DNA of 64,000 nucleotides from Amphiscolops sp. MND2022 (Eukaryota). Numbering within the stretch: position 1 is the first letter of the stretch; each line of letters begins with the position of its first letter. The stretch spans positions 24,864,001 through 24,928,000 of the forward strand of contig OZ076409.1 of assembly GCA_964187785.1 (NCBI GenBank). Direction: 5' to 3'. The notes beneath the pieces were generated by a model, which made no database searches, had not been told where the DNA came from, and saw only the letters and a program-made list of their open reading frames with translations. The position numbers were made by a program, and so were the translations under genes. This document shows positions 17,435 to 58,000 of the stretch, in pieces.

Positions 17435-17632
17435 CTACAAAGCAGTGTACTACGCTAAATGAAATTCAGTTATGTATTAAAGTATTAAAATTTATGTGAT
17501 TCAGCATTGGTAACAAAGCAGGGCTTTAATGAAATTTAAACTCTATCCAACACTTTTTGTTTTATTCGGGAAGGTTTATTTCGTTTTTTGAATTTTTCTA
17601 GAAAAAACGTTTTTCATTTTCGCTATTATTGT

Positions 17633-18075
17633 TTAATATGAATGTCGTTCCGTTTTCAAATTTTTTGGTAGGGTATTCCATATTGGGACCACTTGGCTGA
17701 AGAAGCTATTTTCAATAAAGATACTGTCATTTTTGACAATGAGATAGATTTGATCGGTTCGTTTATGTTCTCTAATAAATGCAGTAGTTGGTCTATTATC
17801 GTTCGTTGAAGAAGGAACCATGTTGTGAGAGAACTTCTAAAGAATGGAGCCAATTTCAATTTCAAGAAGTATTGTATAGGTAAAATATCATGCAAAAAAT
17901 TCAAATCCGCTGAGTGATCACATTTTGGTAGAACTATTTTGTCTAGTTCAGGTGTATCGATAAAAAACTGACGAAAAGCCATTACAGTCACTCTTTTCTG
18001 AAGAAAGGCGCCGACTAATAAACGACCTGTTTTTGGAAAACGTCTATACATTTTTTTAGCCTGACCTTTGAACAA
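17633..18075 (-). pseudogene. LINE ORF2 C-terminal remnant
   Basis: ENSFFSQVVPIWNTLPKNL resembles the SFF.R....WN.LP end motif of CR1/L2-like ORF2 proteins. The frame is broken. Confidence 0.45.
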
Positions 18076-18820
18076 AGTGATTAGCTAGTTTCAAACATAA
18101 TACAGCTACAACCAATGTTGCCGAAGTGTTAGGTAGCAAAGTTCTTCAGTTTCAATGTCTTAGATGCCAATCCCGGCTCTTTGGGAATTTTAAAATAGTT
18201 TAACAGGGTTGACTTCGAAGGTTGTGCACTTGAATTCTCTTGGAAGATTGTTGCGGTTATGTCTGGAAGAAGTGTCTCAATAAGAGACACGGTTACTCTT
18301 GGGATCTTAATGAAGACGTTTTCTAAGCGTGATTGGTGGATATTGTTCACAGTGACACAAATAACACTTGGAAAAAGATCGAGAGTGCTTACCATTACAA
18401 TGCAAAATTGACATCATAGCTGTGAAATTTACCAACAATTGACGCTCGATTAATTTGAAACGCTCTCAAAACTTGACTTCGTGTCGTCATTTCTTTTCGT
18501 GTGTGATTTGGTTTTCATTTTTGAGACCTTTCAAATTTTGACACAATAATGCATGAAAGTCAAGAAGTTTTTTTGAAATCTAAACTTTGTTTGATTATAT
18601 TGAGTTGTCTTCTGAAACTGAAATTTATTTCAGTTAGTAGTTTCATAGATGCTTCTGCTTAGGAAAAGTCCCCTACACTACGGTGGATCGTTGTTTCTTT
18701 GTCGCCAGCTAACGAAGTCACCGATAGTCATCATATCAAAAGTCATGTTTTCGACACTCTGAAACTTTGTAACGATTCTTTTGCATTGAGAGTCTCTATC
18801 TCGTGGTTTTCGAAAAATTG

Positions 18821-18978
18821 AAAATTGGATGCGTCCAAAATAGTTTTTAGTGCTGTTAGACTTCATAAACTATCATTCATGTTTGTGCGTATTTCCCTTA
18901 AGGGAAATACGCACAAACATGAATGATAGTTTATGAAGTCTAACAGCACTAAAAACTATTTTGGACGCATCCAATTTT
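18821..18978. repeat. Perfect spacer-less 158-bp palindrome (79-bp arms)
   Basis: AAAATTGGATGCGTCC...ATTTCCCTT|AAGGGAAAT...GGACGCATCCAATTTT, centred between 18899 and 18900. Confidence 0.97.
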
Positions 18979-19233
18979 GAGGACGCATCCATCATCAATT
19001 GAGCAATGAAGAACTTTCAGATGGATTTTATTACGACTTGCAACAATTCCAAACTAGTGCGGAAGTCAGTTGACTTCTTTCGTCCATTCGTTGACTCCTT
19101 TCCTCCATCTTAGGAACAATCTTTCGTAATTATCTCCCAAGTTGACCATCATGGCTCATTCTCGGCCTTTCATCATGATTATGGCTTTTTCATGAAATTA
19201 CATTCGAATGATCATTCATGGTGATTTTTATTA

Positions 19234-32585: not shown

Positions 32586-33686
32586 TTTTAAATTTTGGAC
32601 ATCAATTGGTGATCTTTATAGTATCAGTGTAACTCTAGTTGAACTGAATACCAAAGTTTACCACCTTTTTAAATCCCAATCGTGGATAATTCATTTTCGA
32701 AATTATATCTCGTTTTTGGTTCCCAAGATTCTGGTTCTGACGCAATACTAGCCACAAATATTTCACTAACCACAAAAATTTTCAGTAATTTAGAATGAAG
32801 TATGACCAAGCTGAGAACAGCTAGAATTCGGCGCCCGCAACTGACTCAGACAGCGCAAGTTTTTTCAAATGAATTTGAAGACTGTATTCAAGTAAAACTT
32901 GAAAAGCGTGTGTCGAAATATTTTAGAATGGTTACCCTTCGTGCTCACAAAAAGTTTAAACGTAGGTGAAAACATCTCTAAGAAAAACAACGGAAACATA
33001 GTCCTAAAAAGGTTTAAAAACCTTTTGGAGAAAGGAAAAAGAGTTTGAAGAAAGTCAAACAGTGGAGGAAAAAATTAAAAGAGGCCTTTGATGTCATACA
33101 TGAATTAAAATGTTTTTACAAACTTAATGATAGCTGGAATTGAACGCCGTCCTGCTGCTTAAGAAGCCAACGCAGGTACTACTAGGCCAACTGCCAAATC
33201 CTATATCGGCCACCCTGACAGTTTCCTTCGCAATCTTGTCTGTCTTAATTAAAAGAAGGACTGTAATAGACCGGCGATTTTAGTCTTAATTAAAAGTGCC
33301 CAATAAAAATGATGTAATAGATTTCAATGAAAAATTTGAATCGTTGTTGAACGTCCTTTTTCTCTCCCAACACGTTAAAAGTTTCAACATGATGAATTGT
33401 GCCATAAATACATTTTAAAATTTTTTAAACACTTCAATTTACATCATTCCGATGACTTCCCATAGATTCATACAATCATATACTAATTAATAACATTTTC
33501 ACGCGAGTAGGGGAATGGTAATAATTCAGTTCAAAATAAGCTCAAAAACCGACTATGTGCTCTTTCTGATATCTCTACCGATTTCAATAAAAAACTATTT
33601 GACAAAGAAGCAACTAATATTTCTGAAGCCGCTGAACGTAAGTCATCAAAAAAGTAATATTATGAAGTGATTTATGAGAAGTTCTT

Positions 33687-34364
33687 TCAAAGAAGACCGA
33701 TTCGTAAAATGTATTTGTCATAACCTTCTTCATTTTCACTCTGTTCAGAATCTCCTGAACATTCTATTTGATGATTTGGAAGGTTATTTGTTGTCTTATT
33801 TAGTCTATGAAAATTCTCTCTTGAGTCTTGGACCTGCTGGCCAATTCTAATTTTATGCCGTCCATATGACCCTAGGTCCAAAGTCTGGTCCATTGGGACG
33901 TTTCTACTCGGATGCCGTCCATCTGACCGAAGGTCCAATTTTGCGTTTTTACAGTCCCTGTGATTTACTATGACAATTTCGATGCTCGGTAGTATTTTTT
34001 CATCGATGGCAGAGTTTATTACATCCATGATGTGGGAATTTAGGTCAGATTTCATTTCCTCTAATTTCCTTGACATCTGCGAAGAAATTTCTGAACTAAT
34101 TGCTCTGCTAGTTTCTACTGTAATTTCACTATTCTCACTCAAGTTTGTATTCAAAAGAGACCTATAGTTACTTTCTCCATGACTGAAATCTTGTTGCCGT
34201 CCATTTGACTCAGGGTCTATTTCTACTTGATCTACCGTGTTTTGATCCCTAATTTCGCTATTTGAGTAATTTCCGAGCATCACATCTAGATTTTCAATAT
34301 CAGACATTATGTCAGATTGTCTTGAACGTTTCTCTCTTGCTTTCTGCTTTCTAGTTGAAGGCAT
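33687..34364 (-). CDS. LTR-encoded gag-like N-terminus (MPSTRKQKAREKRSRQSDIMSDIENLDVMLG...EEGYD), running out of the LTR into flank
   Basis: ATG lies about 116 bp downstream of the TATA. About 216 codons are open up to the LTR end (TATGACA). Homologous to the ORF at 54456. Gag identity is inferred from position. Confidence 0.6.
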   Translation of the reverse strand: MPSTRKQKAREKRSRQSDIMSDIENLDVMLGNYSNSEIRDQNTVDQVEIDPESNGRQQDFSHGESNYRSLLNTNLSENSEITVETSRAISSEISSQMSRKLEEMKSDLNSHIMDVINSAIDEKILPSIEIVIVNHRDCKNAKLDLRSDGRHPSRNVPMDQTLDLGSYGRHKIRIGQQVQDSRENFHRLNKTTNNLPNHQIECSGDSEQSENEEGYDKYILRIGLL

Positions 34365-35265
34365 TTTCAAGGAATGGATTTGATTTCAACAGTGAATTGA
34401 TCAACAGTAACAAACCAAACAGTTTTGTATCGTAACGCTTTCAATGAATGAATGAATCCCTCTTTTTACAAATTCCGCGTATATATAGATTATACAGCAT
34501 GACACGCAATATTTTGCGTGTCAGGAACTAAATTTAGGGTGATATCATTCTAAATATAGCCCCGATTTCATTGTTAAGTCACTAGTTCTAAAAATAGACA
34601 GAGGGTTTTGACATTACGTCACACAAATGAAGAGATATAAATAGCATCAAACAAATAGTGGGTATCTTTACATGCATTCAAATTCAGGTTAAAATCAACC
34701 TTTCATGTATTGGCAATATCAATATTCAATGAAATTCTAAGTTTGACCATGCGTCAGCATGACTGCAATAATAGACTGGTACTTTACTCTGATTGGTCAA
34801 CAAGTACTTGTGACCACACGTCAATTTGACTGCAGTAGAGTACTAGTTAATTAGCTAAGAAAAGTGTTCTAAAGTACTCTTTAAACACCGTTTAACAGCA
34901 CTTGAGTTACTTGCTAAGTATTGCGGCGTTAACTAAGTGTTGTACTTTAGGTACAAATTAATTGCGAGTAATTTCATCAATGAGAAATTCTAAATAGTAA
35001 CAAATCAATAATAGCAATTGAATAAATACACAGATTGAATGCTGTCAGTTTGACCTTTGGTCTGAATAGCAATATCGAAATTGCATGTTTAGCGTTAATA
35101 ATTCGGTCATTACATGCATGAAACAAATGTTAAACAATCAGAATAGATGCTAAAGTTCGTTTCAAAGTTTGTCCTAGATAGGTAGTACCCCGGGGGCTGG
35201 TGGTGTCTCATTACCTTGTGGCATCATTTGGTATAGGATGCCGTCACAAGCGGCAGCTTGCGACA
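33716..35265 (-). repeat. 3' LTR (1550 bp)
   Basis: TG...CA ends, directly preceded by the PPT. No differences seen versus 47722-49271 (offset 14006). TATATATA at 34480-34487. Confidence 0.95.
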
Positions 35266-35998
35266 CTCCCCCCGGTACAAGTATGAACGTCCCTGCTTTC
35301 ATACCTGCCTGGAATGCATCACGTCTAGCAATCCGCTGCTCATAAGTTTCTCCTGGAATGTGTGTCTGTTCAAGGTACCCCAATGTTATTTCTTCTTTAA
35401 TATCCGCAGATGATTTCCCACAGATCACGCAACCAGTTTGGGTCGTCTCATTGGGTTGGCCACAGCTTCCCCCGACACTAATTCCGAGGCCCGTGATGTG
35501 TGAGTTGCCATACCATGAGTCTGTCAAACCTTGAGGTTGTGTAGGCTGGTAAGTATCAATTGAGGGTCCTTGGTCTTCTGGCGGAGGTGACCATGGGGAG
35601 TCCCGTATTGGGTTTAGCTGGCCACAATACGTTATTGGGTGGTCATCCGCATTTGAGCCATAAGAGGTTCTTGGGGGGCCCCCAACACACCAATCGAGCA
35701 AGTCTTGTGACGGGTCTGTAAAAGTGCTCACTGATCCGATTAGATCGTTATCTGGTATGTTCAGGTCGTTCAAGCAATGAGCTAATTCTGTAGTCATCGC
35801 CCGACCCGCGGTGAGTTGTGGAGGGAAAGGTATATTTTCACGATAACAAGCAAGAACGTGTATGTCGTCGTCCGAATCTTGTCCGTCAGGTCCGTCTGCA
35901 ATAGACACTGAGTCCACTTCCATTTCTTCATCAGATGACTGGTACGAAAGGCTTACTAGAGGTCTATCGTGTTCCTCCAAAGAAAATTGTAGAGACAT
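35174..35998 (-). CDS. Accessory 3' ORF (274 aa from MSLQFSLEE), function unknown, overlapping the PPT and U3
   Basis: Uninterrupted ORF, acidic and Pro-rich, with GCVICGK (CxxC). It is preceded by a branch-point/acceptor-like TGCTAA...TTCTACAAG|GAAATG. The last 30 codons lie inside the LTR, and a homologous tail is at ~3100-3179. Confidence 0.7.
   Translation of the reverse strand: MSLQFSLEEHDRPLVSLSYQSSDEEMEVDSVSIADGPDGQDSDDDIHVLACYRENIPFPPQLTAGRAMTTELAHCLNDLNIPDNDLIGSVSTFTDPSQDLLDWCVGGPPRTSYGSNADDHPITYCGQLNPIRDSPWSPPPEDQGPSIDTYQPTQPQGLTDSWYGNSHITGLGISVGGSCGQPNETTQTGCVICGKSSADIKEEITLGYLEQTHIPGETYEQRIARRDAFQAGMKAGTFILVPGGVSQAAACDGILYQMMPQGNETPPAPGVLPI
35266..35273 (-). other. Polypurine tract
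   Basis: GGGGGGAG immediately 5' of the 3' LTR TG on the minus strand. Confidence 0.85.
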
Positions 35999-36653
35999 TT
36001 CCTTGTAGAAACGTTGAATGAGAAGTTTTTTAGCAATTGTGGCAAACAAGGTTTGTAGCGACTGAGTTTTACAAAGTTTGGGAGGTAAATAATTTCCTGC
36101 TGTCTTCTTGACTTCAGGTCCAACCCCAATTTTGGCGGGGGTTGGGCGCGGGGTTTTCCCCGAATCATAGTTTTCACATTTCCTATTTAGGTTTCGGTTA
36201 AGAGTGGAGTCTCGAGTAATTTTCAAGTAATTTATCTGCGAAGCTTGTTAATTGCCTCTACAAGTTGTTTTACTTTATTCTTCAAAGGCGTCACTTGACA
36301 ATCTAAGTGTTGTCTCTCTTAATTCTTCGTCAACAATTAACTTGAAAGACCGTCGGTCCTTTCGACGGCAGCAATGATGATAACCAATCAAATAATACTG
36401 GATTGGTTGGTAAAATATGACGAATAATTTTAAGAATGTGAAATGAAGTAAATAATTTGATGCATTTTTTAGGTTTAGAGAGTGAAATAAAGTGAAACAA
36501 GTAAAGAAGCCCATGAATATTTCACTGGCAGATTCCATACCATGAACCATGAATAGTAGAATTTGATTAACATAAAGGAAGAGATGGTAACATAAGCGTA
36601 AATCTTACATGTGGCCACGACATCCAAATGATAGTCAAGGTAAGAGCAATAGA

Positions 36654-36728: not shown

Positions 36729-37507
36729 GAGGATTTTGGACTGTAAGTTAATGGTGAGAATCAGCAATTAGTAGGAGTAGTAGTTGGAGAGTGAAGTTAG
36801 TGAGAGGAGAAGTGTACTAGATATCAATTAAAGTTGTGCCGTCGAGATGACTCATAGTCCAACATATTGGTAGTGGTTAATAATACTCAATCGCGAACTA
36901 GTAACACACTGCCGTCAAGTTGACGTTACGTCCACAGCTCTGTGCTTTGCGTTAAAGACTATTGCCTTCATCAATTGTTTCCTCTTGTAGTATCACTTGA
37001 GCTAGACTGTATTACCTAGTAATCAGGATAGTCTCTCTGACCTTGAGCAACAAATTGATTCAGTCTTAATTTCGCCTTTTCCTAACCTTTCCCCAACATA
37101 AATTCACAAATTTTGCTTGCTTTAATTTGAATTGATATCCTCAAATTCCACTTTTCTTCTTTATTTTTCATCCAGGTGATCTTACTTCACTACAAGGCTC
37201 TCCAGACACAAATTCCGTGTGAAAGAATTTGGCAAATTCCTGTTCGTCTATTTTACTAACAAACGTCTGGGATTACATTGCGAAGTCAAACAAAATTCAT
37301 CTTCAACAGCGTACAACAATTGGTCACATCAATTCTGTTGATCGAATATGGATTCAACATCAGGTTGGTTCTTTTGAAAGTGTTAAAATTAGGCTTGATC
37401 AGGGCTCATAATTCTAACTAAGTTACTTCCTCCATCGTGAAATGTTTGCTGTCAGCATGAACATTGTGTCAAAAGTATTTCCGGAAATATTTATTGAGCG
37501 CGGCTAG

Positions 37508-40500
37508 ATGGATTCATATTCAGGAAGTGAACCGCGTTTATTCATCTCATTCCGTTTAGGTGATGAATCTAATGGCCAACCTCCCCAATTGGTCACTGAA
37601 GAAGAAAAAATGGATACAACTGATTCCTTTGTAACTGCCTCCTCCACTGTCAATAATTTCCCCACCGTAAAGTCTATGGCTCACGGCCAGAATAACAATG
37701 ACGACAAGTTAGATGATCCTGAGAGAGTAGTGGAAGACGACCGCAGTCCGGTGAGTGAAGGAGCAACTACAAGTTTGGGGAATATCACTGTGACACCTCA
37801 AGATTCCCCCATCACTATTTCCAACACAGAGGCCACTCCTCCTGCTATTACAGCAACTGGGAACGTTGAGAGTAGTAGCACTGATGAGAGTTGTGGGGCT
37901 TACATCGCTCGAAAATGGGAACAATTGGGCTGTTCGCAAGAAACTGGTACATCGAGTCAGAACGACTGGAGCGGCAAGAAGTTTAGCGAGAGTACCATGA
38001 TGGAGCTGATGCCTGGTCAGTATTCCCCTACCCGGGACGAATTGGAGTTGGACGAAGCGCCAGAGGTTGCGTTCCTGGACTCTCCCAAAGTACTATTGAA
38101 AAGCAGTCTCAAGTCTCGATATGGGCCTTCCGAAGCAAAAGTTCAAAGACTGAGTGTGAAGTTGAGTGCTCCAAGGACTGATTTGTCTGGTGCCGCTGCC
38201 GGGACGGGAGGTCTCTCAAGTTCTGAAGCTGGATCTGAGTTCGCTGGGGAATTTGAAGCCCCCAGATTTGCAGAACCAACAACGAACAGGGAATCCGATA
38301 AAGCAACCAGTGACGCCGGGTTAGAGTCTGAAGGATTAGTCGGGTCCACAGTGGCTGATGTCCTGTTCGCACCTGCCCAAGCTAACGTATTTAGAGTGAG
38401 TGATGTAGCCAGCAACACGTCAGTAGATTTCCCTGAATCAGCACCTCGAGTCCCTCAACTGTCAGCTAGTGGCCGCGCTTTGATAAAGGAGTATTTTGAC
38501 GAGGCCAACCCCATCAGATTGTCTCCTGGGCATCCTACCCTTGCATTGAATGAGGGCCAGGTGAGTAGCTTGTTAAAAGTTGTAGCAGATGAAGCAGTTA
38601 AATCGTCGCTGAAGGCTATGGAAAACTTGGTACAACAAGCAAGCAGATTGAGTCTTGTAGCCCAGCGGTCACCGACAGCCGTCATTCCGAGGTCGAAGAA
38701 AACAAGTTCCCAGACCAGTTATGCTGGGTCACAATCTGGTTTGTCATCAGGGCATACAAGCGATACCAGTGGGGGAATCAGAAGTGACGATGATTTCGCC
38801 AGTATTGGATATGTTTACGAGCATTCCGACCTGGAGAGTCAGCATTTTACTCCTCCCCCAACCGGTCCCTCAGGAAGCCGTCAAATTGACCTTGTGTCAC
38901 CTGTAGTTTCAACCCAGCCTGATAGCCCCGGAGGACAAACCTTGGCTGCTCTCAAAGCGGAGGCGGTATCGGAAAAGACTAAGTCAGGAACACGCCGAAG
39001 ACAAAGCAAGAAGCCTACTCGTCCCAAAGGAGAGAGCAGACATCGGGTGCCTCGTGCCTGTAAAATCATGAAAGAGGCGTATTTTAAAGGAATGGAGTGG
39101 ACGAAGACGTTTGTAAGCGGACCAGTTGATCCTCGCTGGAATCCGTACAAATTTTATTGCCAAATCTGTAAAGGCAATATATCAATTTATGGACGCGGCG
39201 CTCGAGAGATCCTTCGTCACCACTCCACTGAACGTCATCTTCGTAAGGATCAAAGGTGGCGATACGAGCATCTTGCCATAGAAGACCCCGTGAGTGGAAG
39301 GGTAAAACACCATGTCAGAGGAAAGGACGGACGACTTCTCACCCCCTATGAGCTTCAATTAGAATTGCCCAAGTTCATTGGGGTGGAACTCGTGGACATC
39401 GGAGAGAAACTTCCTTTCTACGACGAATACGCTCAAGGAGTTGACTACATGGCTTCTTCATCCGACAACCGTGTTCGAGTCCAGATGTCAGTTCTGGGTA
39501 ACTACTTGCGAAGCTACGGCGATATCAGCACCCTGAGGAACCTCTGGCGGGATGTTGGGGTCGTTGTGAACCATCAGTCGCTCTTCACTGACTTTGACTG
39601 GAGTAAAGAACGGCTATCAGTAAGTATTTTCCTGCCGTTAAATCGACTTAAGGTCTTCCCCAGCCCAGTAATCGTTACCTTTGACCTTCATTAAATATGA
39701 TGTTTTCATTCTAGGCTCTCTTCCACCACCTGTTCTTACAAACTATTCATGACATTGGAGACCATGTAGTTGCAGCGGGCGAGTATTCTCTGGAATTTAT
39801 CAAGCAAGGAGTCTTCCTGTTAGTGTTCATTCGTTTCTGGAGAAAGGACGAACTCTGCCGAGTTTTCCTGAAGCGAACCGGCCGTGTCCTGGGACAGTCG
39901 GCAGCCGAATTAAGCCTCATAAGTGACGTTTTGGCAGTTTTCTCACCCGGCCCCAACATTGTCAGTTGCTCCGGTTGCAGCCTGGAAACGATTCAGAAGG
40001 TAGATAGTTCTCCTTACAGTAAGCATGGACTCCAACACCCTCTCAGATTTGAGGACTTTTCAATCGCGCGGCTAATGCATAAAGAAAGCTATAGCGTCTT
40101 TGGACGTATCGACTTCCACTCCGTTCTCAAGTATCTTATCATCTTCTTGGGGGGAAGCCTCGACTGCGATTGGACCTTGATGACGCCAGTGTTGGCAAAG
40201 GTTAGACTCTCTCATTTTAGGCTTTTAGTCCACGGCTATTTCGAAGGTACTAATAAACTTGTTGTGCTCAGGCTGTTCGTACTTGCCAAATTGAACTCGC
40301 CACTCTCCCAACACTGTGTCAGGAGCTGCTTGCTAACTGGACAGATGTGACCAAATTCCTGAATGAACATGCACCTCCGCATGAAATGATGGGAGTGAGA
40401 AAACAAGTAAGTCTCTGCCGTCCCGTTGACCTTCAGTCTAATTTCAGTTGTTTCAATTTTCCTTTTGTTGTTCTAGCCTCAGAACCTAGAGCGAGCCATG

Positions 40501-41760
40501 ATCCATGATGAGTTGTTTCTGTGCCGACTTGAGCTCTTCTATCGCTTGGTCAGGGATTGTAAGTATAGTCCACCCGTGGTACGTATCATTTCTTGAGCTT
40601 TCGACAATCATAGCGAACGCAAATGTTTAGATACCACGAGCTTTGTGCCACATCTGACTGAACGACGGGATCATGGATTCCATATCTACAGGCAGTTATG
40701 CCAGTACCTCTTCAAGCTAGGAAGGCGCTGCATCAAGCCGAAAAGTCTGCCACAGGAAACAGATCTGTCAGGGATTTTGGGTATTGCTATGTCGGATGCC
40801 AAAGCCTTAGCCATTCCCGATTTCATCGCCCGATCGAAGCTCGACCAACGACTGAACGTGGCTTGCAAGGTCAAGGCAGAAAAGGAATTGAGCGACAAGA
40901 AGGGCAATCGGGCTAATCTTCCGAAACTCGTGAAGGAGAACAAAGAAGAGTTTGGGCGACTTGGGAGGAGCTACGTTGCCTACCTTTTCCATGCTGCCCA
41001 AAACAACTTACAACTGACCTCCACCATTGTGAAAGGATTGGGCTCCTTTGATCTGGACATTATGTATCGTTCTCCCCTTAGCCAGGCGCTGAATTGTTTC
41101 AAGCATCTTTTCTGCAGCTTTCATCTTCGCGGTTACTTTCAAGCCGACGCGGAGTCCATCTATACAGAGGAATATTTATCATTCCTTGACGAGATCCGCA
41201 AAGAGATGCCTGATTTGAGCCAACCAAGGGTCATAATCCAGGATGCAGTGACTCACATTTCCAATCATGTTGCCTTAGAGTCACGACCCCATCTTGCTCG
41301 GATCTTTAAGCTGAGCTGTTTATGTTTGGATGAGAGTTATGTTAGTATGCCTACCGTGAAGTTTGGTCCAGTGCGGACAGATGACCCCAAAAGTAAACTT
41401 ATTGACACCATTCTGCCTGTTCAATCCTTCTTTATTAACGTGGGGAGGAGTATAGATGCCTTCACTTCAACTTCTTCAATAGCTAAGTTCCTTTCCTTCG
41501 AACCTACGTTCGGGAATACTGCCTTCTCTGATATGTATAGCCCCTGGGACAGCCTCAATCGCTTCGATCGCTCTGAAATTCTTGCTGCTTTACGTCCGGG
41601 CTCGATGAAGAGGAAGACTGAAGGTCGAAAACTGAGGTTTAAGGATTTGAAAAGCAACAGCAGTTCCAAGAGTCTTCCGCCAGCCAGTGCCAAAGGATCG
41701 CCTGTGAGGCGTCAATCAGACAGCGAGTTGCCCTCTAGTTCATCTATTAAAGACACTTAA
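37508..41760 (+). CDS. Antisense spliced gene inside the retrotransposon: ~1314-aa zinc-finger protein, probably hAT-transposase-derived. Exons 37508-39619, 39715-40200, 40272-40406, 40477-40558, 40631-41760
   Basis: Four GT-AG introns (39620-39714, 40201-40271, 40407-40476, 40559-40630; phases 0,0,0,1) join three long ORFs and two short exons into one stop-free frame. It contains a BED/TTF-like finger, FYCQICKGNISIYGRGAREILRHHSTERH, and YSLEFIKQGVFLLVFIRFW resembles hAT core strands lacking the first Asp. A possible alternative first mini-exon 37348-37363 (MDSTSG) splices in frame to 37560. Confidence 0.85.
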
Positions 41761-41978: not shown

Positions 41979-44900
41979 CTAGTATCTGTATTCGTCAGTA
42001 AAGTTGGGGGTAGGATTGGGGCGTAAGTTATATTTCCCTCCCCTAGGACTTTCATTTTCTACAACACAATCATCAGTTTCTTCAATTAATACATCGGGCA
42101 CGATTGTATCGTTCCCCCCAGAAGTTGAAAATTCTGAATTTTCATCCCTAGGTAGGTCCCGATTTGTCAATTCATCGTTTTCGAATTCGGTATTTTGTTG
42201 CCGTCTATCGGACTGACGGTCTTCATTGTGTGCATTTCTTGAGTACTGCTCCGTATTATCAGCCTCAGTATTTGATTGCCGTCGGGCGGACCGAAGGTCC
42301 GCTTCGTTTATTTCGTTTGAGCGTGAGTCACTATCAGTATCATCAGCGCGAGCGGCATCAGTATTTGTTTGCCGTCGCGTGGACCGTAGGTCCAAATCGG
42401 TTATTATAGCATCTTGTTCATCAGAATTGGTAGGGAGTTCATTAGTAACAGTCCGATTTTCAGAGTTAGGAGGGAAATCGTCAAAATTGGTGTCCCATGA
42501 AATGATGTACAGATCATCTTGTGGAATAATAATTTCATCGTCAGCTTGTAAATTTCCTTCGGGACGAATGTCTTGTGGGGTAGTATTTGGAGTGTATTTT
42601 CTAAGGCGTATGCGGTGTAATATCTGCGTTTTGTTAGTACTAAGTTTGCGAACAATATAGTTGTCATTAGGTAAAACTTTTTCTATGACGTACGGTCCGA
42701 TCCAACGAAATTCACGAAAAGGAATTTTAGAGCCTTGATGGTCAGCTAGAGGTTGTAAAATGAAGCAAAAATCTCCTTGTTGTAGAGGAGCTGCTTTAGC
42801 CTTTCGGTCATAATATTCCTTGTACTTTAAATATGATTGCATGATGTTTTTCTTTGTTTGATCAATTAATATTTGCGTGCGTCTTTGAAATTCTTCAGCA
42901 AAATCAGTCGTTGGAGTGATCTTTGGGTTAGGGTTTAATCCTAACCGATGGTCTAAGATATTATAGGGTACTCTTCCGTGAAAAATTCGGGTGGGTTCGC
43001 ATCCAAGACTTGAATGATAGGTCGTGTTATAATTAAGGACGGCCAATGGGAGATATTTGTGCCATTGACGCCTGTATTCGCCTGATGCCATTTTAAGGTT
43101 GCCCTTAAGGCTGGCATGAGTGCGTTCTAGTTTGCCTATCGTCTGAGGATGCTTTGTAGTCGCACACCGAAGGTGAATCCCCAAGATTTTGGTAATTTCT
43201 TCTAGTAGTTTGGACGTAAAGGCAGTGCCTTTGTCGGTGATTAGCGTAGTCGGCAAATAGGAATGTTTTGTCATGATATCAATAATGACCTTTGCCGTAT
43301 TGACGGCCGAAGCGTCCGTTACTGGGTAGGCAAAAAGATATCTCGAAAACACGTCCAGAGCCGTTATGACATTTTCGTATCCTCCACTTGGGGGTAAGTT
43401 GGGCAAAATGTCAATTTGTAAGGCATCTTCTGGGCCAAGATCCCATTCAGGTAAATTGAGTAATTCAGGTGTTATGGATGCATTGTTGATTCTTTTGTCT
43501 TTTATACAAATTTCACATCCTTGGACCCACTTTTTGACAATTTTTGCGATTCCAGGATAGTAATATTTTTGTCGAATTTCGTGCAGCATTTTTGAGATTC
43601 CCGGGTGTTTGTTCGCGGAACCATGTAGTGATTGAAGTAATTCTGTGACTAGATGTTTCGGTAGTAATGCTTGGCGGAATTGGACACTGCCTGTTTCATC
43701 GTAGTAGTCTCTGAAAATGATGTCATCATGTACGGACAGACGGTCAATTTGACGGCAGTAATGTCGGTAGCGCGAATCTTGCTGTAAGATGGTTTCAGAG
43801 TATTCTTCTTTTTGCAGTTTGAGTCGTAATTGATGCAAGATAAGGTCGTTCTGTTGTTCTATAGCCATGGTGGTTGGTTTTGCCAGTTTTTGTATATTTT
43901 GATTTTGGAATTGTGTATTATCATGAGTGCTAAGATGATCTAACAAAATATCAGGAGGTTGATTCGTTGGGTTTGACCTGGCGTCTTGTTTGCGTTTCCA
44001 GATTTGTTCTTCTGTTTCTTCATCATCGTCCGTATAGAAGATCTGTTCCTCTTCAGTAACTCCCGCTGATTGGACGTTGAGTTCGATTGGTGTGGTGGAA
44101 ATATCTTCTCGTATCCGGAGTATAAGTTTTTCTTTGGGACAGATTTCTAGACGTGACAAGTAGTCAGCAGCAGTATTGTTTTTGCCAGGTATATGGGCTA
44201 TTGTGAAACTGAATTGCATAACGTAGTCACACGCGTTCCACAATGTGGGTGGAATGATTTTTGTTTGAAAAAAGCGAGTGACTGACTTGTTGTCTGTTAG
44301 TATTATCACCGGTTTCGGGGTCCCCCAGAAGATATGGCCAAATTCTTTAAATGCAAAGAATATTGCTAAGAATTCTTTGGCATAAATGGACATCTTCAGT
44401 TGGGCTGGACTAAAGGTCTTGGATCCATATGCTACAGGTGCGAAGGCTTTTCGCGTCGAAGTATATTTTTCCATCGGATCGTCCTCGATGAGAACTGCAT
44501 AACCTGCTGCCGAAAAACTAGCGTCTGTCATCAGGGCTATCTGTTTGTCGGGTAGAGGTTGTTTGAGCGCCAGTTCACAACATCGGTCAAGAGCTTTGTT
44601 GATCTCGGTGAATTTTTCTAACAGATCGGGTGTCACCATGACTTTGGCATCACTTTTCAAGAGCTTGAAGAACGGTGTGAGTTTTTCTGAGAGTCTAGGA
44701 ATGTAGTTGCGGTAGTAGTTCAGGAATCCCAAGTATCTTTGAAGAGCTTTCTTGGATTTAGGGAATTTGGTCTTTTCCAAGAAATTCTGGACCCTGGGTC
44801 GTTGTGGCCGCACCCCTTCAGGAGTGATGGTACGTCCCAGGAAGTCGATTTCCTTGGCGCCAAAATGGCATTTGTGCATCGTTAGTTTGAGGCCAGCAGC
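41979..44900 (-). CDS. pol: Pol C-terminal part: RT end, RNase H, integrase (H2C2, DDE core, GPY/F), low-complexity tail
   Basis: KCHFGAKEIDFLG; TDASFSAAG...ELA-like KEFLA...LTDNKS...ADYLSR (RNase H); HGSANKHPG...CEIC; LQIDILP, ITDKGTAF, PQTIGKLERTH; WIGPYVIEK. Confidence 0.95.
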   Translation of the reverse strand, partial: AAGLKLTMHKCHFGAKEIDFLGRTITPEGVRPQRPRVQNFLEKTKFPKSKKALQRYLGFLNYYRNYIPRLSEKLTPFFKLLKSDAKVMVTPDLLEKFTEINKALDRCCELALKQPLPDKQIALMTDASFSAAGYAVLIEDDPMEKYTSTRKAFAPVAYGSKTFSPAQLKMSIYAKEFLAIFFAFKEFGHIFWGTPKPVIILTDNKSVTRFFQTKIIPPTLWNACDYVMQFSFTIAHIPGKNNTAADYLSRLEICPKEKLILRIREDISTTPIELNVQSAGVTEEEQIFYTDDDEETEEQIWKRKQDARSNPTNQPPDILLDHLSTHDNTQFQNQNIQKLAKPTTMAIEQQNDLILHQLRLKLQKEEYSETILQQDSRYRHYCRQIDRLSVHDDIIFRDYYDETGSVQFRQALLPKHLVTELLQSLHGSANKHPGISKMLHEIRQKYYYPGIAKIVKKWVQGCEICIKDKRINNASITPELLNLPEWDLGPEDALQIDILPNLPPSGGYENVITALDVFSRYLFAYPVTDASAVNTAKVIIDIMTKHSYLPTTLITDKGTAFTSKLLEEITKILGIHLRCATTKHPQTIGKLERTHASLKGNLKMASGEYRRQWHKYLPLAVLNYNTTYHSSLGCEPTRIFHGRVPYNILDHRLGLNPNPKITPTTDFAEEFQRRTQILIDQTKKNIMQSYLKYKEYYDRKAKAAPLQQGDFCFILQPLADHQGSKIPFREFRWIGPYVIEKVLPNDNYIVRKLSTNKTQILHRIRLRKYTPNTTPQDIRPEGNLQADDEIIIPQDDLYIISWDTNFDDFPPNSENRTVTNELPTNSDEQDAIITDLDLRSTRRQTNTDAARADDTDSDSRSNEINEADLRSARRQSNTEADNTEQYSRNAHNEDRQSDRRQQNTEFENDELTNRDLPRDENSEFSTSGGNDTIVPDVLIEETDDCVVENESPRGGKYNLRPNPTPNFTDEYRY

Positions 44901-47018
44901 CTGATGCACTGGAACGTTGCTCGAAGGTTGTTGATGAGCTGGGTAGCGTCATTTGCAGCTATCCCAATATCATCTACGTACTGAGCACATTGGTCAGCTT
45001 TTATCACTTTATCCAGGTATTCGCGCATAAAGCTCGAAAATGCGGACAGCGCTCTGCTTAGACCTTGGGCAAGTCGGCGATAGGCAAATGTTCTGCTGGC
45101 AAAATTGAATGCCAGCATCTCGATTGACCTCTGGTCAGCCATCTGAAGGCAGTGGTATGCTTGGGAACAATCAAGTTTGCAAAATAATCGTTTACCTGCC
45201 ATGTGCTGCGCAGCATCCGTTAGTGTGCTGACAGGATGGTTGTTGTTGATGTAATCGTCAGAAATCAGGTTGTTGATCTTTCGGAGGTCAACCAGGAGTC
45301 GAAGTTTGCCGTTAGGTTTTTTCTGGGCAAAGATGGGACTGGCATATTTGGAAAATGGGAGAGTTGTTATAATCCCATATCGATGTAGTAGTGCTAGTTC
45401 TACAAGGATATCTTCTTTGAGGTTGATGGGAGTAGGTAAGCTTTGACTATAGGCAGGGGAATCATCTTTAGGGGTCAAAGTGACCTTGAAGTCTTCGTTC
45501 ATACCTATATCGAAGCGGTGTCGTGCAAAAATATCGTGAAATTCAACAAGTAATTCTTCAATTTGGGCAATTTCGGCTGGATTTAGCGTAGAGTCTGTCC
45601 AGTCAAAGTTAGCAAGAAATTGTTTCCGCGATTCAGGGTCATCCTGAGGGTTGAGTTTCTCTAAATCTTGGAGATTTCGTAGTTCCCTAAGGATTCTTTG
45701 TTGTATGGGTGTGTGAGTTTGAGGATCTCCTGGTTCTTCTGGAGTAGGGAACCAGTAGTTCTCACTATCATCGTTAGTTTTCGGGGATTTGATCAGGCTA
45801 CTGGCATAATAGGCAGCATTTTCCGGGTTATCCTTCGGAAGGTGCCAAGTTGTCACGGGATCAATGGGTTTGACGTATTTCATCTGCTCTGGTGTGAGGA
45901 CAGAGAAATTGGCAATGTGCGAACCTCTTTTGAGGGTGTACGGTTGGTCAGTGAAATTGTTGACATGAATTGATACCTGACCTTGGGTCAGTGTGACTAG
46001 AGCGGCGCAGAAGGTTATATCACCATCATCTGCAAGGTCGTTGCTCGGTTGAAGGATTCCAGTGACGTTTGTGTCGTCATATAGTTGTGAGAACATGGAA
46101 ACCATATGTCTGTCGTTGGGGGGAATAGTTATATCCTCCCGTGCACAGATAGGTTCCATGACATTAGTGTACTTGTGGTCCGCTGTTTTCAATTGCATGG
46201 AGAAGAAAGGGAAGTTTAAAACTCCTTGACGCATGTCCAGTATGGTATTGTTCCGTTGCAGGAACGGGAGACCAATTAACGGACTTGTGAGTTTTTCCAT
46301 GACGATGAAGATCTCATGGAAATCGATGTCCCCGACTTCGAATTTGAGTTCAACAGTGCTCTTTGGAGTCTCCAGCTGTCCATTGGCTACCATAATCTGG
46401 AAGTTGGGTGCCGGGCCCTCTTTAACTATTGACTGAGGGGCTAACAATCGGATTTTACGTAGATCAGCTTCTGGGATAGCGCTAGATAGGGCTCCCGTGT
46501 CTACAAGGCCATCTAAAGTTAGTTCGCCAAAATCCATGGGGAAGTAGAGCATCCGTCGTTTGTATTTGAGTCCCAAGTTGGTCGTCAACGGGACGTAGTC
46601 AGGTTCACCGTTTCGTGAGATCAGCGTATTCACAAAGCGCTCTTCCACTGTTGCCGTCAATGTGACCAAAGGTCCATTGTGTGGAAGTTGTTCGGGTATG
46701 GCCTCCTGGGTTGGTGAATTAGTGTTAATCCACACTTTTTGCCAGGGGTCAACAGAGGCCGTGGATAGTTTTGTGTTCAGAAGCTGATCAATGTGAGGTT
46801 GATCATGTTCGATATCGGCAATTTGTTTGGTGAAATTTTTGTAGAAGTGTAGCTGATGTTGGTTGTAGATTTGAATGTCCCAATAGGGGTCGAATCCGAA
46901 GTCCGGGTCAGGATAATATGGGTTATAGTTATCGATTAGGGGAAGGGGGCGAATGGTCGTAGTATTAGAGTGCTGTCTGTCGGACTGAAGGTCCGGTTTG
47001 TGTAAGTGAGTAGGGCAA
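44882..47018 (-). CDS. pol: Pol N-terminal part: aspartic protease and reverse transcriptase; 1-nt frameshift near 44900
   Basis: LVDTGA protease motif; SPIFAQKKPNGKLRLLVDLRKIN, KLDCSQAYHCL and QYVDD RT motifs. The frame stays open upstream of the tracked ORF start (46735) right to the junction at 47018. Confidence 0.93.
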
Positions 47019-47721
47019 TTTAAAAACCTTTTGGAGAAAGGAAAAAGAGTTTGAAGAAAGTCAAACAGTGGAGGAAAAAATTAAAAGAGGCCTTTGATGT
47101 CATACATGAATTAAAATGTTTTTACAAACTTAATGATAGCTGGAATTGAACGCCGTCCTGCTGCTTAAGAAGCCAACGCAGGTACTACTAGGCCAACTGC
47201 CAAATCCTATATCGGCCACCCTGACAGTTTCCTTCGCAATCTTGTCTGTCTTAATTAAAAGAAGGACTGTAATAGACCGGCGATTTTAGTCTTAATTAAA
47301 AGTGCCCAATAAAAATGATGTAATAGATTTCAATGAAAAATTTGAATCGTTGTTGAACGTCCTTTTTCTCTCCCAACACGTTAAAAGTTTCAACATGATG
47401 AATTGTGCCATAAATACATTTTAAAATTTTTTAAACACTTCAATTTACATCATTCCGATGACTTCCCATAGATTCATACAATCATATACTAATTAATAAC
47501 ATTTTCACGCGAGTAGGGGAATGGTAATAATTCAGTTCAAAATAAGCTCAAAAACCGACTATGTGCTCTTTCTGATATCTCTACCGATTTCAATAAAAAA
47601 CTATTTGACAAAGAAGCAACTAATATTTCTGAAGCCGCTGAACGTAAGTCATCAAAAAAGTAATATTATGAAGTGATTTATGAGAAGTTCTTTCAAAGAA
47701 GACCGATTCGTAAAATGTATT
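47019..47721. repeat. Copy of the element's outer flank 33013-33715, sitting where PBS/gag should be
   Basis: 33013-35265 recurs at 47019-49271 (offset 14006), including the GTATT TSD. Confidence 0.95.
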
Positions 47722-48370
47722 TGTCATAACCTTCTTCATTTTCACTCTGTTCAGAATCTCCTGAACATTCTATTTGATGATTTGGAAGGTTATTTGTTGT
47801 CTTATTTAGTCTATGAAAATTCTCTCTTGAGTCTTGGACCTGCTGGCCAATTCTAATTTTATGCCGTCCATATGACCCTAGGTCCAAAGTCTGGTCCATT
47901 GGGACGTTTCTACTCGGATGCCGTCCATCTGACCGAAGGTCCAATTTTGCGTTTTTACAGTCCCTGTGATTTACTATGACAATTTCGATGCTCGGTAGTA
48001 TTTTTTCATCGATGGCAGAGTTTATTACATCCATGATGTGGGAATTTAGGTCAGATTTCATTTCCTCTAATTTCCTTGACATCTGCGAAGAAATTTCTGA
48101 ACTAATTGCTCTGCTAGTTTCTACTGTAATTTCACTATTCTCACTCAAGTTTGTATTCAAAAGAGACCTATAGTTACTTTCTCCATGACTGAAATCTTGT
48201 TGCCGTCCATTTGACTCAGGGTCTATTTCTACTTGATCTACCGTGTTTTGATCCCTAATTTCGCTATTTGAGTAATTTCCGAGCATCACATCTAGATTTT
48301 CAATATCAGACATTATGTCAGATTGTCTTGAACGTTTCTCTCTTGCTTTCTGCTTTCTAGTTGAAGGCAT
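47693..48370 (-). CDS. Second copy of the LTR-encoded gag-like N-terminus
   Basis: Translation identical to 33687-34364. Confidence 0.6.
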   Translation of the reverse strand: MPSTRKQKAREKRSRQSDIMSDIENLDVMLGNYSNSEIRDQNTVDQVEIDPESNGRQQDFSHGESNYRSLLNTNLSENSEITVETSRAISSEISSQMSRKLEEMKSDLNSHIMDVINSAIDEKILPSIEIVIVNHRDCKNAKLDLRSDGRHPSRNVPMDQTLDLGSYGRHKIRIGQQVQDSRENFHRLNKTTNNLPNHQIECSGDSEQSENEEGYDKYILRIGLL

Positions 48371-49271
48371 TTTCAAGGAATGGATTTGATTTCAACAGTG
48401 AATTGATCAACAGTAACAAACCAAACAGTTTTGTATCGTAACGCTTTCAATGAATGAATGAATCCCTCTTTTTACAAATTCCGCGTATATATAGATTATA
48501 CAGCATGACACGCAATATTTTGCGTGTCAGGAACTAAATTTAGGGTGATATCATTCTAAATATAGCCCCGATTTCATTGTTAAGTCACTAGTTCTAAAAA
48601 TAGACAGAGGGTTTTGACATTACGTCACACAAATGAAGAGATATAAATAGCATCAAACAAATAGTGGGTATCTTTACATGCATTCAAATTCAGGTTAAAA
48701 TCAACCTTTCATGTATTGGCAATATCAATATTCAATGAAATTCTAAGTTTGACCATGCGTCAGCATGACTGCAATAATAGACTGGTACTTTACTCTGATT
48801 GGTCAACAAGTACTTGTGACCACACGTCAATTTGACTGCAGTAGAGTACTAGTTAATTAGCTAAGAAAAGTGTTCTAAAGTACTCTTTAAACACCGTTTA
48901 ACAGCACTTGAGTTACTTGCTAAGTATTGCGGCGTTAACTAAGTGTTGTACTTTAGGTACAAATTAATTGCGAGTAATTTCATCAATGAGAAATTCTAAA
49001 TAGTAACAAATCAATAATAGCAATTGAATAAATACACAGATTGAATGCTGTCAGTTTGACCTTTGGTCTGAATAGCAATATCGAAATTGCATGTTTAGCG
49101 TTAATAATTCGGTCATTACATGCATGAAACAAATGTTAAACAATCAGAATAGATGCTAAAGTTCGTTTCAAAGTTTGTCCTAGATAGGTAGTACCCCGGG
49201 GGCTGGTGGTGTCTCATTACCTTGTGGCATCATTTGGTATAGGATGCCGTCACAAGCGGCAGCTTGCGACA
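47722..49271 (-). repeat. 5' (or solo) LTR, 1550 bp, with GTATT on both sides
   Basis: GTATT|TGTCAT...GCGACA|GTATT. No PBS follows it. Confidence 0.95.
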
Positions 49272-53417: not shown

Positions 53418-55041
53418 CAAAGATTGAAAGGCGCTTTGTAATTGTAAACGTAATCAGAATACGTGGCAATGTAGCTGTATAGCGTGAAGGAACCGAGTTT
53501 AAGTGGACGAGACTCCTATTCCGGAGACGTCACTTGAGCTCAGCATTTTAGCCAATCACGTCGCTTCTCTTTGCTATATTAGTACTGTTTTGATTATGTA
53601 GTGGCCGAGTATGGCCAATTGACTCAATATATATACTCCACTACACGCTTTAGTCGAATGGCCGGTTCCGGCCACCTAGATGAAGTGAATTGTATACTCG
53701 TGTAATTAACCATAACAATCGGAAATTGCTGTAAATGTATCCCTAATGATGAATGAAAGCCTCCACCCCGATCAATGAACCTAGTAGACCTAGTGCTAAT
53801 ATAAAGGCCGAAGTCTTTTGCCCTCCCTTATTATAATGCTGGATTAAAAAACCGGATTTGTCCATTTTCGGCCTTGATAAAAAGTGTGATATTTTGATAG
53901 TGTAGTACTATTTTAAACAAGCTGATCATGTAATATTTGATTTTGTTTCAACCTGTGTTAAATAATAAACACGTGGCAACGCGTGTCGCAATGACATTCC
54001 AAAAGGGATGCCTCTTACATTCCTTCAGTGAGTATTGGTATTTGTTGACAAGATAATGGTGTTGATGTTTTCATAAAACAATACTTAGAGGTGCGGTTTG
54101 TGTACCTACCGAAGTGCTATTTATTTGATGTTGGATTCTCAGAAATTACCTGAATGTCGGGAATTTACCCGATTGGGGTTTCACTCAAATATGTGCTTTG
54201 AAGTGTTGATTACTTCACTAGTAATAATGATGATGTTTACCTCGTGACCTGTTAAGGCCGCGATCATGTAATATTCTCTTAATCAAAGAGTCCGTGGAAT
54301 GTGGCTGTCACCTTTTGAGAGTATATATACCTATGTTTCGAGAGGAGAAGTCATATTTTTCACATCTCTGCTTTGATAAAGAGTGAATTGATATAACGAT
54401 TCTCAACTAGTTTTCCGGTTTAAATAATTGAACTATTTGACCCGGTTCTGTCTTGATGCCTGTGACTAGGAAACAAAAGAAAGCGAGGAAATCGAGATGA
54501 ATAGAGATGCTCTCGGATATAGAAAACTTAGACATCATGCTTGGTGAAAACCATTATAGCAGGAATGAAAGAGATGAGAGCGTCAACAGTAATCAGGCTA
54601 GGGGACCAAGAAGCGTCCTAAGAGATGAATTTGAAAACAATGGTGAAAATAATTACCTGGAAACAGGTAGTCTCGACCCCGGTACTAGTGCCAATCATGG
54701 CCAAAATTCAACAGGAGACAATTCAAGTGCCGAGATCAACAGGTTGTCAAGCGAGTTGAATTCGAGATTGTCTATGGAACTTGATGATATGATGAGTAGT
54801 GTTAATACCCAGATTCAGAGGGCAATCAATGATGCGATCAGTGGTCAAATCTTACCGCAAATCCAATCTGTCCTAAATGCCGGATCGGGACAATCAACAC
54901 TAAATAAATGGAACGTTCCGTCCGAGAGACCGGAAGTGAACTCCGAAGAGACCTTTGGTGAGAAAGCCAAGAAAAGCAATAGAAGTGAGCAGCGCTTTGA
55001 TTACCAAAATGGTAGTCAGCCTAACTTACGTGCTTACGACA
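53418..55041 (+). mobile_element. LTR of a related Gypsy family (start lost in the gap); partial second copy at 57302-58451
   Basis: GTATATATAC at ~54321, then a gag-like ORF ending at ...TACGACA (RAYD, cf. GYD/TATGACA in the main element). No PBS follows. Confidence 0.7.
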
Positions 55042-58000
55042 ACTGCATAGCTAGTTTTATCGTCTTCTTACGTTTTAAATCCTATAACACATAAAACTTC
55101 TCGGAAAATGTACACGATTTGAAAATATTAAAAAACGATAAAAACAGGATTTTTGTGGACAATTCGACATTTTCCTCTTCAATTTTTGTGAAATAAATGC
55201 ATTAATCTCTTCACAAAAGCCTACTGGACAACGATTTTTTTTGCTTTTCGAACGTTTTCAACATTTTAATTCACGACATTTAAGTTATTATTTATTTATT
55301 TAATTTATTAAATTTGACCATAGTTGGATAAAAACATAAAAATTAAAACTTTTTGGAGTTTTTGTCAATTTCGGGGTCAAGGAGACATTTTCCATGAAAA
55401 GTTGCATTTAGTTTTTAGACAAGCCTCCTGGACAACGAATTCTTTCCTTGTTGAACGTTTGTTCCTATTTGATCTTATCACACATTTATTCCGTGGTACG
55501 ATTTTCAGTAAGATTTGTAGCATTTTTGTAAAATCGTTCCACATCGTAACTAGAATAAGCCTGATAGTGCTGAGCGTCAGCCGGGAATCGCCAAAAAAGC
55601 AATTTCCTCGTTATTAGTTACTCGGGTTACCACTCCTTACATTCATACTTTGACCAAAAAAAACCCTGTGACAAGATGTTGGTACGAAATCTACGAACTT
55701 GACTTGGGCTGGACTCGTTGTTATATTCATCAAATTATCAATGATCAGTCATGATAAAAGATATCGGAGTGTATGTAAAGTTAATTTATAAAATTTCTTT
55801 CGAGGGTGATTTCAGGGGTAATAGACGTTGGTAAAAATACTTTCAGACAGAAATAAATTGACTAAAATTCTCGATTACCGCTCGACTGAAATGCGGCCTT
55901 TTTTGAGATCTCAATGGAACAAATTTAGCACGTTGCTTTAGTTAATGGGCCGGCCTTTGTTGGTTACTGTCAGAAGAAAAATTACTCCAATGGGCGTAAT
56001 GGGGAACATGGGCAATAAATTTGGCGAGATTTTTTTCCACAAAGGAAGCAACGAGGCATAAAACTGGGATAGGACTAACAAAAATGCGGGGCTCTAAAAA
56101 GCATGTCGAATATATTAAAAAGTCTTTGTTGAAGGTCTTGGGTATCTGTACATTTCATGAATTTCAAACATTTTCCTGGCTTGGGAAATTCTGTTTAATC
56201 CTAATATTGTAAAACAACAAATCATTTATGTAGCTTCAACTTTTAGAGAAGTAGGAAACTGAATTTTTGGAAGTATCAGTAATTTCCTGTCACGTTAGGG
56301 AGTTTGCCCACCTATTATATTAACAATTCAAATTTCGTAACTGAATTAGAGTAATTGACTGTCATCAAAGAGTTTCCATGCTAGCGGCTTCTTTCTAAGA
56401 TTGTTGTAATTTTTCATTTCCTCCGACGTTTCCTTCGAGTTCACACAGAACACTTTTATCAAACCGGCTGTTCTGTTTCGTGTTTTTATCAAACCGGATC
56501 TCTGTTTGGCTAACGACTTCGACTATTTTTAACTTCCTTTATGATATTCAATGATTCAGCCTTTTTCAATCAACAGTGGTATCTTTGTATGTGTGCTTTA
56601 CAAGATATTTATAATACATTTACCAAAGTATACTGTAAAGAGGGAAATTGTAGTATCTTTTGATAAGATGCATAATGAATGCTTTTTTCCTGGGAGCGAT
56701 AAGCAGGGAAAAACAAATTGATGGGATAGAAAATAATGAGATACATCACTCCGCTAAATTGGCTCCCAATTGTATAACAACCCTTCGAATTCTTGATAAT
56801 GTCTAGGAACAAATTTCAGCTACCGTATCTAATTTAACATGCTTTCTACTGTAAAATGTTCATATAGCTTACATTTCCTCTAGTTTTGTAGTATGACTAC
56901 GAGCTGAACAAAATATCATCAACAATTCAAATTGAAAAAATCTGTGGAAAATGTAAATACAATAAAAACAGCTAATTTACTGGAAATAGTTCCTACCAAT
57001 ACACCGGTTGCTCCTAATAATTCCTTGAGAGGTGTGTGTATACTTTATAAGAAATGACTCAATTTGCAACTCTGGTTCCAATTTAGAGAACATTTAATAT
57101 TTGCTGTTTTATAAACATTCGAGTTTAGAAAATGGTTCCAGCACAAGTATTAAAGCTCTCAGTTTTCATGACAAATAGTTCAAAAACCATTCCATTTCAA
57201 GTATAGCATTTCAAAGGCGGAATTATTCAAATTAGGTTATTAAAATAGGGCGTATGAAAACAAAAACAAATTATAATCAACCATTTCCTGATTTGATGCT
57301 GTTTTGATAGTGTAGTACTATTTTAAACAAGCTGATCATGTAAGATTTGATTTTGTTTCAACCTGTGTTAAATAATAAACACGTGGCAACGCGTGTCGCA
57401 ATGACATTCCAAAAGGGATGCCTCTTACTTTCCTTCAGTGAGTATTGGTATTTGTTGACAAGATAATGGTGTTGATGTTTTCATAAAACAATACTTAGAG
57501 GTGCGGTTTGTGTACCTACCGAAGTGCTATTTATTTGATGTTGGATTCTCAGAAATTACCTGAATGTCGGGAATTTACCCGATTGGGGTTTCACTCAAAT
57601 ATGTGCTTTGAAGTGTTGATTACTTCACTAGTAATAATGATGATGTTTACCTCGTGACCTGTTAAGGCCGCGATCATGTAATATTCTCTTAATCAAAGAG
57701 TCCGTGGAATGTGGCTGTCACCTTTTGAGAGTATATATACCCATGTTTCGAGAGGAGAAGTCATATTTTTCACATCTCTGCTTTGATAAAGAGTGAATTG
57801 ATATAACGATTCTCAACTAGTTTTCCGGTTTAAATAATTGAACTATTTGACCCGGTTCTGTCTTGATGCCTGTGACTAGGAAACAAAAGAAAGCGAGGAA
57901 ATCGAGATGAATAGAGATGCTCTCGGATATAGAAAACTTAGACATCATGCTTGGTGAAAACCATTATAGCAGGAATGAAAGAGATGAGAGCGTCAACAGT

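Follow-up and report, generated by a model that had tools for sequence, protein, structure and literature searches.

Within a stretch of 64,000 nucleotides from Amphiscolops sp. MND2022 (contig OZ076409.1, positions 24,864,001 to 24,928,000; hereafter the window), two tiny introns of a gene that runs antisense to a retrotransposon each hold one copy of the same three-part motif. The locus raises the question of what these copies do and whether the introns are kept on their account. The full motif is TGCCGTC-N5-GAC-N5-GTCY, of which the nine bases GTC-N5-GAC-N5-GTC constitute the core. The copy in intron 1 (39633..39656, plus strand) begins 13 nt into the intron and has one mismatch to the full motif, and the copy in intron 3 (40416..40439, plus strand) begins 9 nt into the intron and matches it exactly; both strings and both offsets were confirmed as given in the original prediction.

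Both copies lie in a 15.5-kb element on the minus strand (genome size 1.07 Gb), which the LTRs, the target-site duplication and the domain order PR-RT-RH-IN assign to Ty3/Gypsy. The 3' LTR (33716..35265, minus strand) is 1550 nt long and contains six core sites; the 5' LTR (47722..49271, minus strand) is identical to it, with its six core sites, and also carries the start of gag. The target duplication is the 5-bp sequence GTATT. The pol region (41979..47080, minus strand) encodes protease, dUTPase, RT, RNase H and integrase, and in this copy the frame is broken inside RT (44882-44948), at a place where several sister copies are uninterrupted. The gag start is contained within the LTR (47722-48391), and in sister copies gag reads through the LTR end. 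The adjoining 47019-47721, where sisters have the gag body, is an exact copy of the host flank of the 3' LTR (33013-33715), i.e., either a local rearrangement or an assembly feature. A second accessory frame, orfX (35174..36247, minus strand; 357 aa), includes one motif copy at 36098 and has no Pfam match; this sense-strand ORF is conserved in clades 1 and 2, and a different ORF takes its place in clade 3. Gypsy families that have no antisense gene have one or two additional sense ORFs downstream of pol (about 590-810 and 340-370 aa; L175-L178, L185-L188 and L193-L194).

Module exchange between subfamilies was apparent when the element was compared with L037/L038 and L063/L064. In one comparison pol is 98% and orfX 97% identical, yet the antisense exons share only 66-85%, and in the other the antisense exons are 95-99% identical, yet orfX shares 49%. 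The window also includes a big inverted-repeat element with repeat arrays inside (14083-21923) and a tandemly duplicated LTR fragment (53418-60705) that has a gag start of the clade-2 lineage and contains GGCC-N6-GGCC sites near 53600-53680.

The antisense accessory gene (37508..41760, plus strand) is located between pol and the 3' LTR. Its predicted coding exons (37508-39619, 39715-40200, 40272-40406, 40477-40558 and 40631-41760, plus strand) are separated by intron 1 (39620..39714; 95 nt, GT..AG, one motif copy), intron 2 (40201..40271; 71 nt, motif-free in the window's clade), intron 3 (40407..40476; 70 nt, one motif copy) and intron 4 (40559..40630; 72 nt, motif-free in this copy), all on the plus strand. 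In-silico splicing of the four introns yields one frame of 1314 codons with no stops, while the unspliced frame meets a stop at codon 729, and the GT..AG positions recur in subfamilies of about 70% identity. From the GT..AG ends, the conserved positions and the restored frame we infer that the four introns of the coding region are spliceosomal. A fifth tiny intron is probably present in the 5' leader (37364..37455, plus strand; 92 nt, without motif), where donor and acceptor are kept in 9/9 aligned copies; the earlier count of four introns is thus valid for the coding region only. After this candidate, within 37364-37507, comes a short upstream ORF that stops directly before the antisense gene's start codon. 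Leader blocks upstream of the gene are conserved, and two motif copies (36837 and 36910, spanning 36837..36933, plus strand) are found upstream of a conserved block at 36989, a region that is possibly the start region of the gene. A 48-nt intron considered near 40000 was dropped, since neither its GT nor its AG is conserved and the subfamilies have coding sequence there.

The proposed DNA-binding part of the antisense protein is a C2H2 (BED-like) zinc finger encoded at 39158..39238 (plus strand). The model of the C2H2 region reaches a pLDDT of 86, and its best fold match is the BED domain of ZBED1, at only E 0.91; a zf-BED Pfam match was returned for 1/67 members (E 0.0099). The C2H2 pattern is conserved, and finger sequences are kept within each motif class but differ from class to class. 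Exon 2 (39715..40200, plus strand) has a predicted RNase H-like fold, for which the Hermes transposase was the first match in Foldseek (E 2e-3, prob 1.0). A wide fold search, for exon 2 only, returned general RNase H-like folds (Z <=6.9), with Hermes absent from the best 50 matches. No Pfam family scored above cut-off in any antisense exon scanned, PDB sequence searches with the alignments A1, A2 and A3 gave nothing meaningful, and the Atlas searches gave low-recognition matches only. The last exon was without Pfam or Atlas support, and the search for longer homologues of it found none, which is weak evidence. On the predicted folds, the antisense protein is likely of hAT descent, and it may have lost the DDE triad, judging by the hAT pattern.

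In order to compare the intronic copies across the family, 87 pooled stretches, some of them the same place fetched twice, were clustered at 88% into 19 subfamilies; rows with deletions were left out (L104 for intron 1 and C6_7.54 for intron 4). In intron 3, mean pairwise identity over the 19 subfamilies is 0.99 in the core, 0.49 in the spacers and 0.40 in the remaining intron, and the corresponding values for intron 1 in the subfamily alignment are 0.89, 0.51 and 0.39. The expectation that the motif would be more conserved than the rest of the intron was therefore borne out, and motif bases diverging at the rate of their neighbours, the opposite outcome, were not found. The core value was matched by 0/100,000 column permutations, in a test that ignores relatedness and for a motif whose definition came from other copies in the element and not from the columns tested. 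Identity at codon positions 1, 2 and 3 of exon 2 is 0.82, 0.92 and 0.43, i.e., the core is constrained about as strongly as second codon positions and the remaining intron drifts like third positions. The full motif (<=1 mismatch) is present in intron 3 of 19/19 subfamilies. For intron 1 the core (<=1 mismatch) is present in 17/18 subfamilies and the full motif in only 5/18, because the poorly conserved 5' arm (identity 0.56) is often TCTAGTC or TCTGGTC. At the same threshold, and in the window's clade, the core occurs in 0/19 subfamilies for intron 2 and in 1/18 for intron 4; shuffled introns reach it in <=0.6% of trials.

The two intronic copies belong to a much larger set of sites. There are 20 motif matches (<=1 mismatch) in the window, every one inside the element, where shuffles expect 0.01; the intronic copies are 2/20 of these element-wide sites, and 18/20 are on the same strand. 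A stricter pattern has 1026 exact matches genome-wide vs 0 for a reversed control, and among 100 matches listed of the 1026, most recur, by inspection, in element-like clusters. Three copies (42199..42393, plus strand) fall inside the coding region of the integrase C-terminus, and further pol copies are at 43734 (minus strand), 46652 and 46971. The sites are spread evenly over the LTRs, pol and the antisense gene with no single-promoter cluster, and there is no tandem arrangement: the copies are scattered, and neither their spacers nor their flanks are related. Relative to synonymous-codon shuffles, the two pol frames have 10 vs 1.3 and 4 vs 1.2 sites and gag has 4 vs 0.8, and the first and last exons of the antisense gene showed no clear excess (p 0.19 and 0.10). 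Taken together, these comparisons of sequence demonstrate selection on the motif sites in introns and coding regions alike. It had also been suggested that the introns extend motif coverage through a long coding region. This holds to the extent that the two intronic sites break up what would be the longest site-free stretch of the window's copy, which is 1281 nt with them and 2258 nt without them. The coding regions of pol and gag hold many sites as well. Leaving out the intronic sites widened the largest gap in 6/6 elements where they were excluded, a tendency expected on removal of any adjacent sites, and spacing was more even than random in 3/7 elements only.

Related lineages have different motifs. 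In clade 1, GAC-N5-GTC occurs 27-36 times vs about 3.6 expected in 7/7 elements, and it is found 0-3 times in seven clade-2 and 2-4 times in six clade-3 elements. Clade 3, in which the antisense gene is 22-29% identical, instead has ACG-N9-CGT (19-23 vs 2.4-3.0 expected in 6/6 elements; 0-1 elsewhere) along with CGT-N7-ACG at 11-18. Clade 2, with 30-45% identity, has GCC-N6-GGC at 8-12 vs 1.4-1.8 expected. The motif classes are mutually exclusive, and the finger sequences fall into the same groups. In a scan for palindromes, scores were 30-49 for clade 1, 19-30 for 8/9 stretches of clade 3 and 7.5-12.8 for clade 2. The best score in ten gene-free Gypsy control elements, which represent about seven families and include four elements of only about 5 kb, was 3-10, and a host flank reached 11.4. 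The partial stretch T_C8_11 scored 14, and the stretch F_C8_11, which has no antisense gene, was left out. Because the clade-2 scores overlap with those of the controls, clade 2 is only suggestive; the first de novo motif scans of this clade gave no strong motif, and the palindrome scan came after them, so its motif is post hoc. Lineage-specific enrichment is accordingly strong for clades 1 and 3 and weak for clade 2, and the introns of clades 2 and 3 are mostly without a palindrome of their own. A query with the P0192 lineage had no match in the genome at E 1e-60. Since related lineages have different motifs, the element likely encodes its own recognising protein. One and the same lineage order, however, is found for motif class, finger, integrase and orfX, and this confounding means that the pattern indicates an element-encoded binder and does not prove which one.

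A finer series is provided by 11 families in which the antisense protein is about 42-57% identical and GAC-N5-GTC is kept element-wide (18-36 vs 2.6-4.6 expected in ten of them). The third arm differs family-wide, the forms being TGCCGTC, TGTRGCC, TGAGGCC and TGCAGTC, and it is degenerate in three families. If the binder co-evolves with its sites, a third-arm change common to many dispersed, non-tandem sites would be the expected result. In 10/11 families the palindrome occurs in an intron, namely intron 1 in six, intron 3 in six, intron 2 in two (at unrelated offsets) and intron 4 in two, and four more of the 11 have it in intron 3 with one mismatch. Palindrome density is 16/4230 bases in introns vs 56/38,558 in exons (3.8 vs 1.45 per kb), a 2.6-fold difference with p 0.0015, a value computed from GAC-N5-GTC families only, which are not independent and for some of which the intron boundaries are approximate.

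The suggestion that the introns are retained because of the motif is not supported by these comparisons. The same intron positions occur in lineages without this motif, being common to clades 2 and 3, and in clade 1 introns 2 and 4, which lack the core, persist no less regularly than introns 1 and 3. Clade 2 lacks intron 3 in 2/8 elements, and in clade 3 intron 2 is absent in 2/2 translated elements and intron 4 in 1/2. Splicing of the genomic RNA that serves as template for reverse transcription does not remove an antisense intron, and no special reason is needed for the persistence of such an intron. As judged from their distribution, the introns predate the motif and are preferred hosts for its sites, and the intronic sites may in turn add a cost to intron loss. 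By itself the intron observation is a supporting detail, in that it exhibits selection acting on the motif where no protein sequence constrains it.

We propose, with a probability of roughly 0.55, that the intronic copies are binding sites for the element's own antisense-encoded, transposase-derived finger protein, which would keep the lineage transcriptionally open. An oligomer of this protein would set its fingers on the GAC-N5-GTC palindrome and on a third, precisely phased half-site. The putative binding would activate the element or shield it from silencing, including at the promoter of the antisense gene itself. Introns that are antisense to the packaged RNA would persist and would offer cheap places at which to gain and hold a site in a coding stretch of 4 kb. 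The wider proposition is held more tentatively, at somewhat less than even odds. It states that a superfamily of animal LTR retrotransposons took a DNA-transposon enzyme as a lineage-specific self-recognition factor, with a tripartite code that runs the whole length of the element, the introns of the factor's gene included, and is rewritten as the finger changes, and with anti-silencing like that of VANC.

Several other explanations have to be weighed against a self-encoded activator. The copies might be neutral leftovers of descent or of gene conversion, and modules exchanged between subfamilies can indeed homogenise sequence, but only the fixed core bases are conserved and the spacers vary almost like free intron; this contrast largely refutes the neutral reading, which we regard as extremely improbable. 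The motif might also work in RNA, either as a splicing signal next to the 5' splice site or as a packaging or dimerisation hairpin. Clade-1 intronic copies do lie 8-13 nt from the donor, and the strong strand bias of the window matches would suit such a role. The majority of copies, however, are outside introns, and motif sites occur in both orientations; in other families the site is 4 to 158 nt from the donor, with one site reversed. Whichever strand is folded, introns 1 and 3 do not surpass their shuffled versions (z +0.31 to +1.07), and within GAC-N5-GTC the inner pair is C-A in 10/18 and 8/19 subfamilies. The hairpin was rejected on these z-scores and the frequent C-A pair, and a function in RNA is altogether very unlikely.

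If the sites are bound as DNA, the binder could be a host transcription factor, given that LTR elements often collect host factor sites and that parts of the motif resemble what we take to be nuclear-receptor (TGACC..GGTC) or Smad (GTCT) half-sites. The central palindrome is, moreover, common to families whose gene is only 42-57% identical. This explanation is nonetheless improbable: palindrome and spacing differ per major lineage and the third arm changes family-wide, the gene-free Gypsy elements have nothing of the kind, and most of the 100 matches listed of 1026 recur in element-like clusters. Recognition by another protein of the element, i.e., orfX, Gag or integrase, would account for the lineage order that these proteins share with the motif, and orfX is of no known family. 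It too has a low probability, because only the antisense protein has a predicted finger of the type that reads spaced repeats. In addition, integrase is 82-87% identical across most of the families that differ in the third arm, as against 50-57% for the antisense exon, and clade 3 has a motif without a detectable orfX homologue. Finally, the same protein might bind the same sites with another outcome, by repressing or limiting its own family or by coating new cDNA for nuclear entry or integration. The even spread of sites over LTRs, pol and gene, not over one promoter, fits this alternative, and binding along the whole DNA would suit packaging or insulation as well as activation. We consider it unlikely, as a site pair is located upstream of the probable start of the gene and the self-binding transposon proteins known from the reports at hand activate (PMC5735166; bioRxiv 10.64898/2026.08.24.746577, both in the portions accessible).

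The reading that we prefer, an antisense-encoded finger protein that would recognise and open its own lineage, can be set beside several known systems. As far as the accessible text of PMC11963269 goes, what antisense extra genes do in LTR retrotransposons has yet to be settled. The same text describes TRP28 of the plant element Retand, likewise encoded by an antisense ORF between pol and the 3' LTR, for which a regulatory DNA-binding role has been proposed. TRP28 is a different protein, and in that portion of the report no cognate binding motif is described and the function of the family-specific tandem repeats is unassigned. The papers listed by the literature searches include none on a transposase derivative that a retrotransposon carries together with dispersed motif sites of its own. 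The antisense gene described here pairs a candidate DNA-binding protein with a predicted target that differs between lineages, and its function is directly testable with just the finger domain and short oligonucleotides.

The three-part motif fits the arrangement in Hermes, a hAT transposase, where three BED domains are bound by a palindrome together with one further, exactly phased repeat (PMC10368747, available in part), and the best predicted-fold matches of the antisense protein are, weakly, a BED domain and Hermes. Unlike the sites described here, which are spread over a retroelement without such ends, the repeats in Hermes adjoin the terminal inverted repeats and serve cutting, according to the accessible part of PMC10368747. 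Spm TnpA and the AtMu1 transposase, two sequence-specific activators, are a similar case of a transposase-derived protein that has no transposition activity and regulates cognate copies via a short motif, as related in the available portion of bioRxiv 10.64898/2026.08.24.746577; those regulators act on the DNA-transposon superfamily they come from, whereas the antisense protein would serve a retrotransposon.

A close parallel in organisation is offered by VANC of the Arabidopsis VANDAL elements, for which we rely on the accessible parts of PMC5735166 and PMC10398659. In both cases an accessory protein is associated with family-specific short motifs in non-coding parts, including the introns of VANC itself, and protein and motif diverge together; the VANC protein is found at introns and at other non-coding stretches within its own family. 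VANDAL elements, in contrast, are plant Mutator-type DNA transposons with motifs in tandem arrays, while here the host is an LTR retrotransposon whose sites are single, dispersed and tripartite, and occur also in pol and gag. CpG is hardly depleted (o/e 0.75-1.03), leaving a methylation-based mechanism such as that of VANC without support. On account of the non-tandem sites, the retrotransposon host and binding that is only putative, we do not class the arrangement as a VANC system. Should the binding hold, self-targeting regulators like those of plant DNA transposons would exist in the retrotransposons of a non-plant genome as well, and this family would constitute a natural series of finger-site pairs for the evolution of binding specificity.
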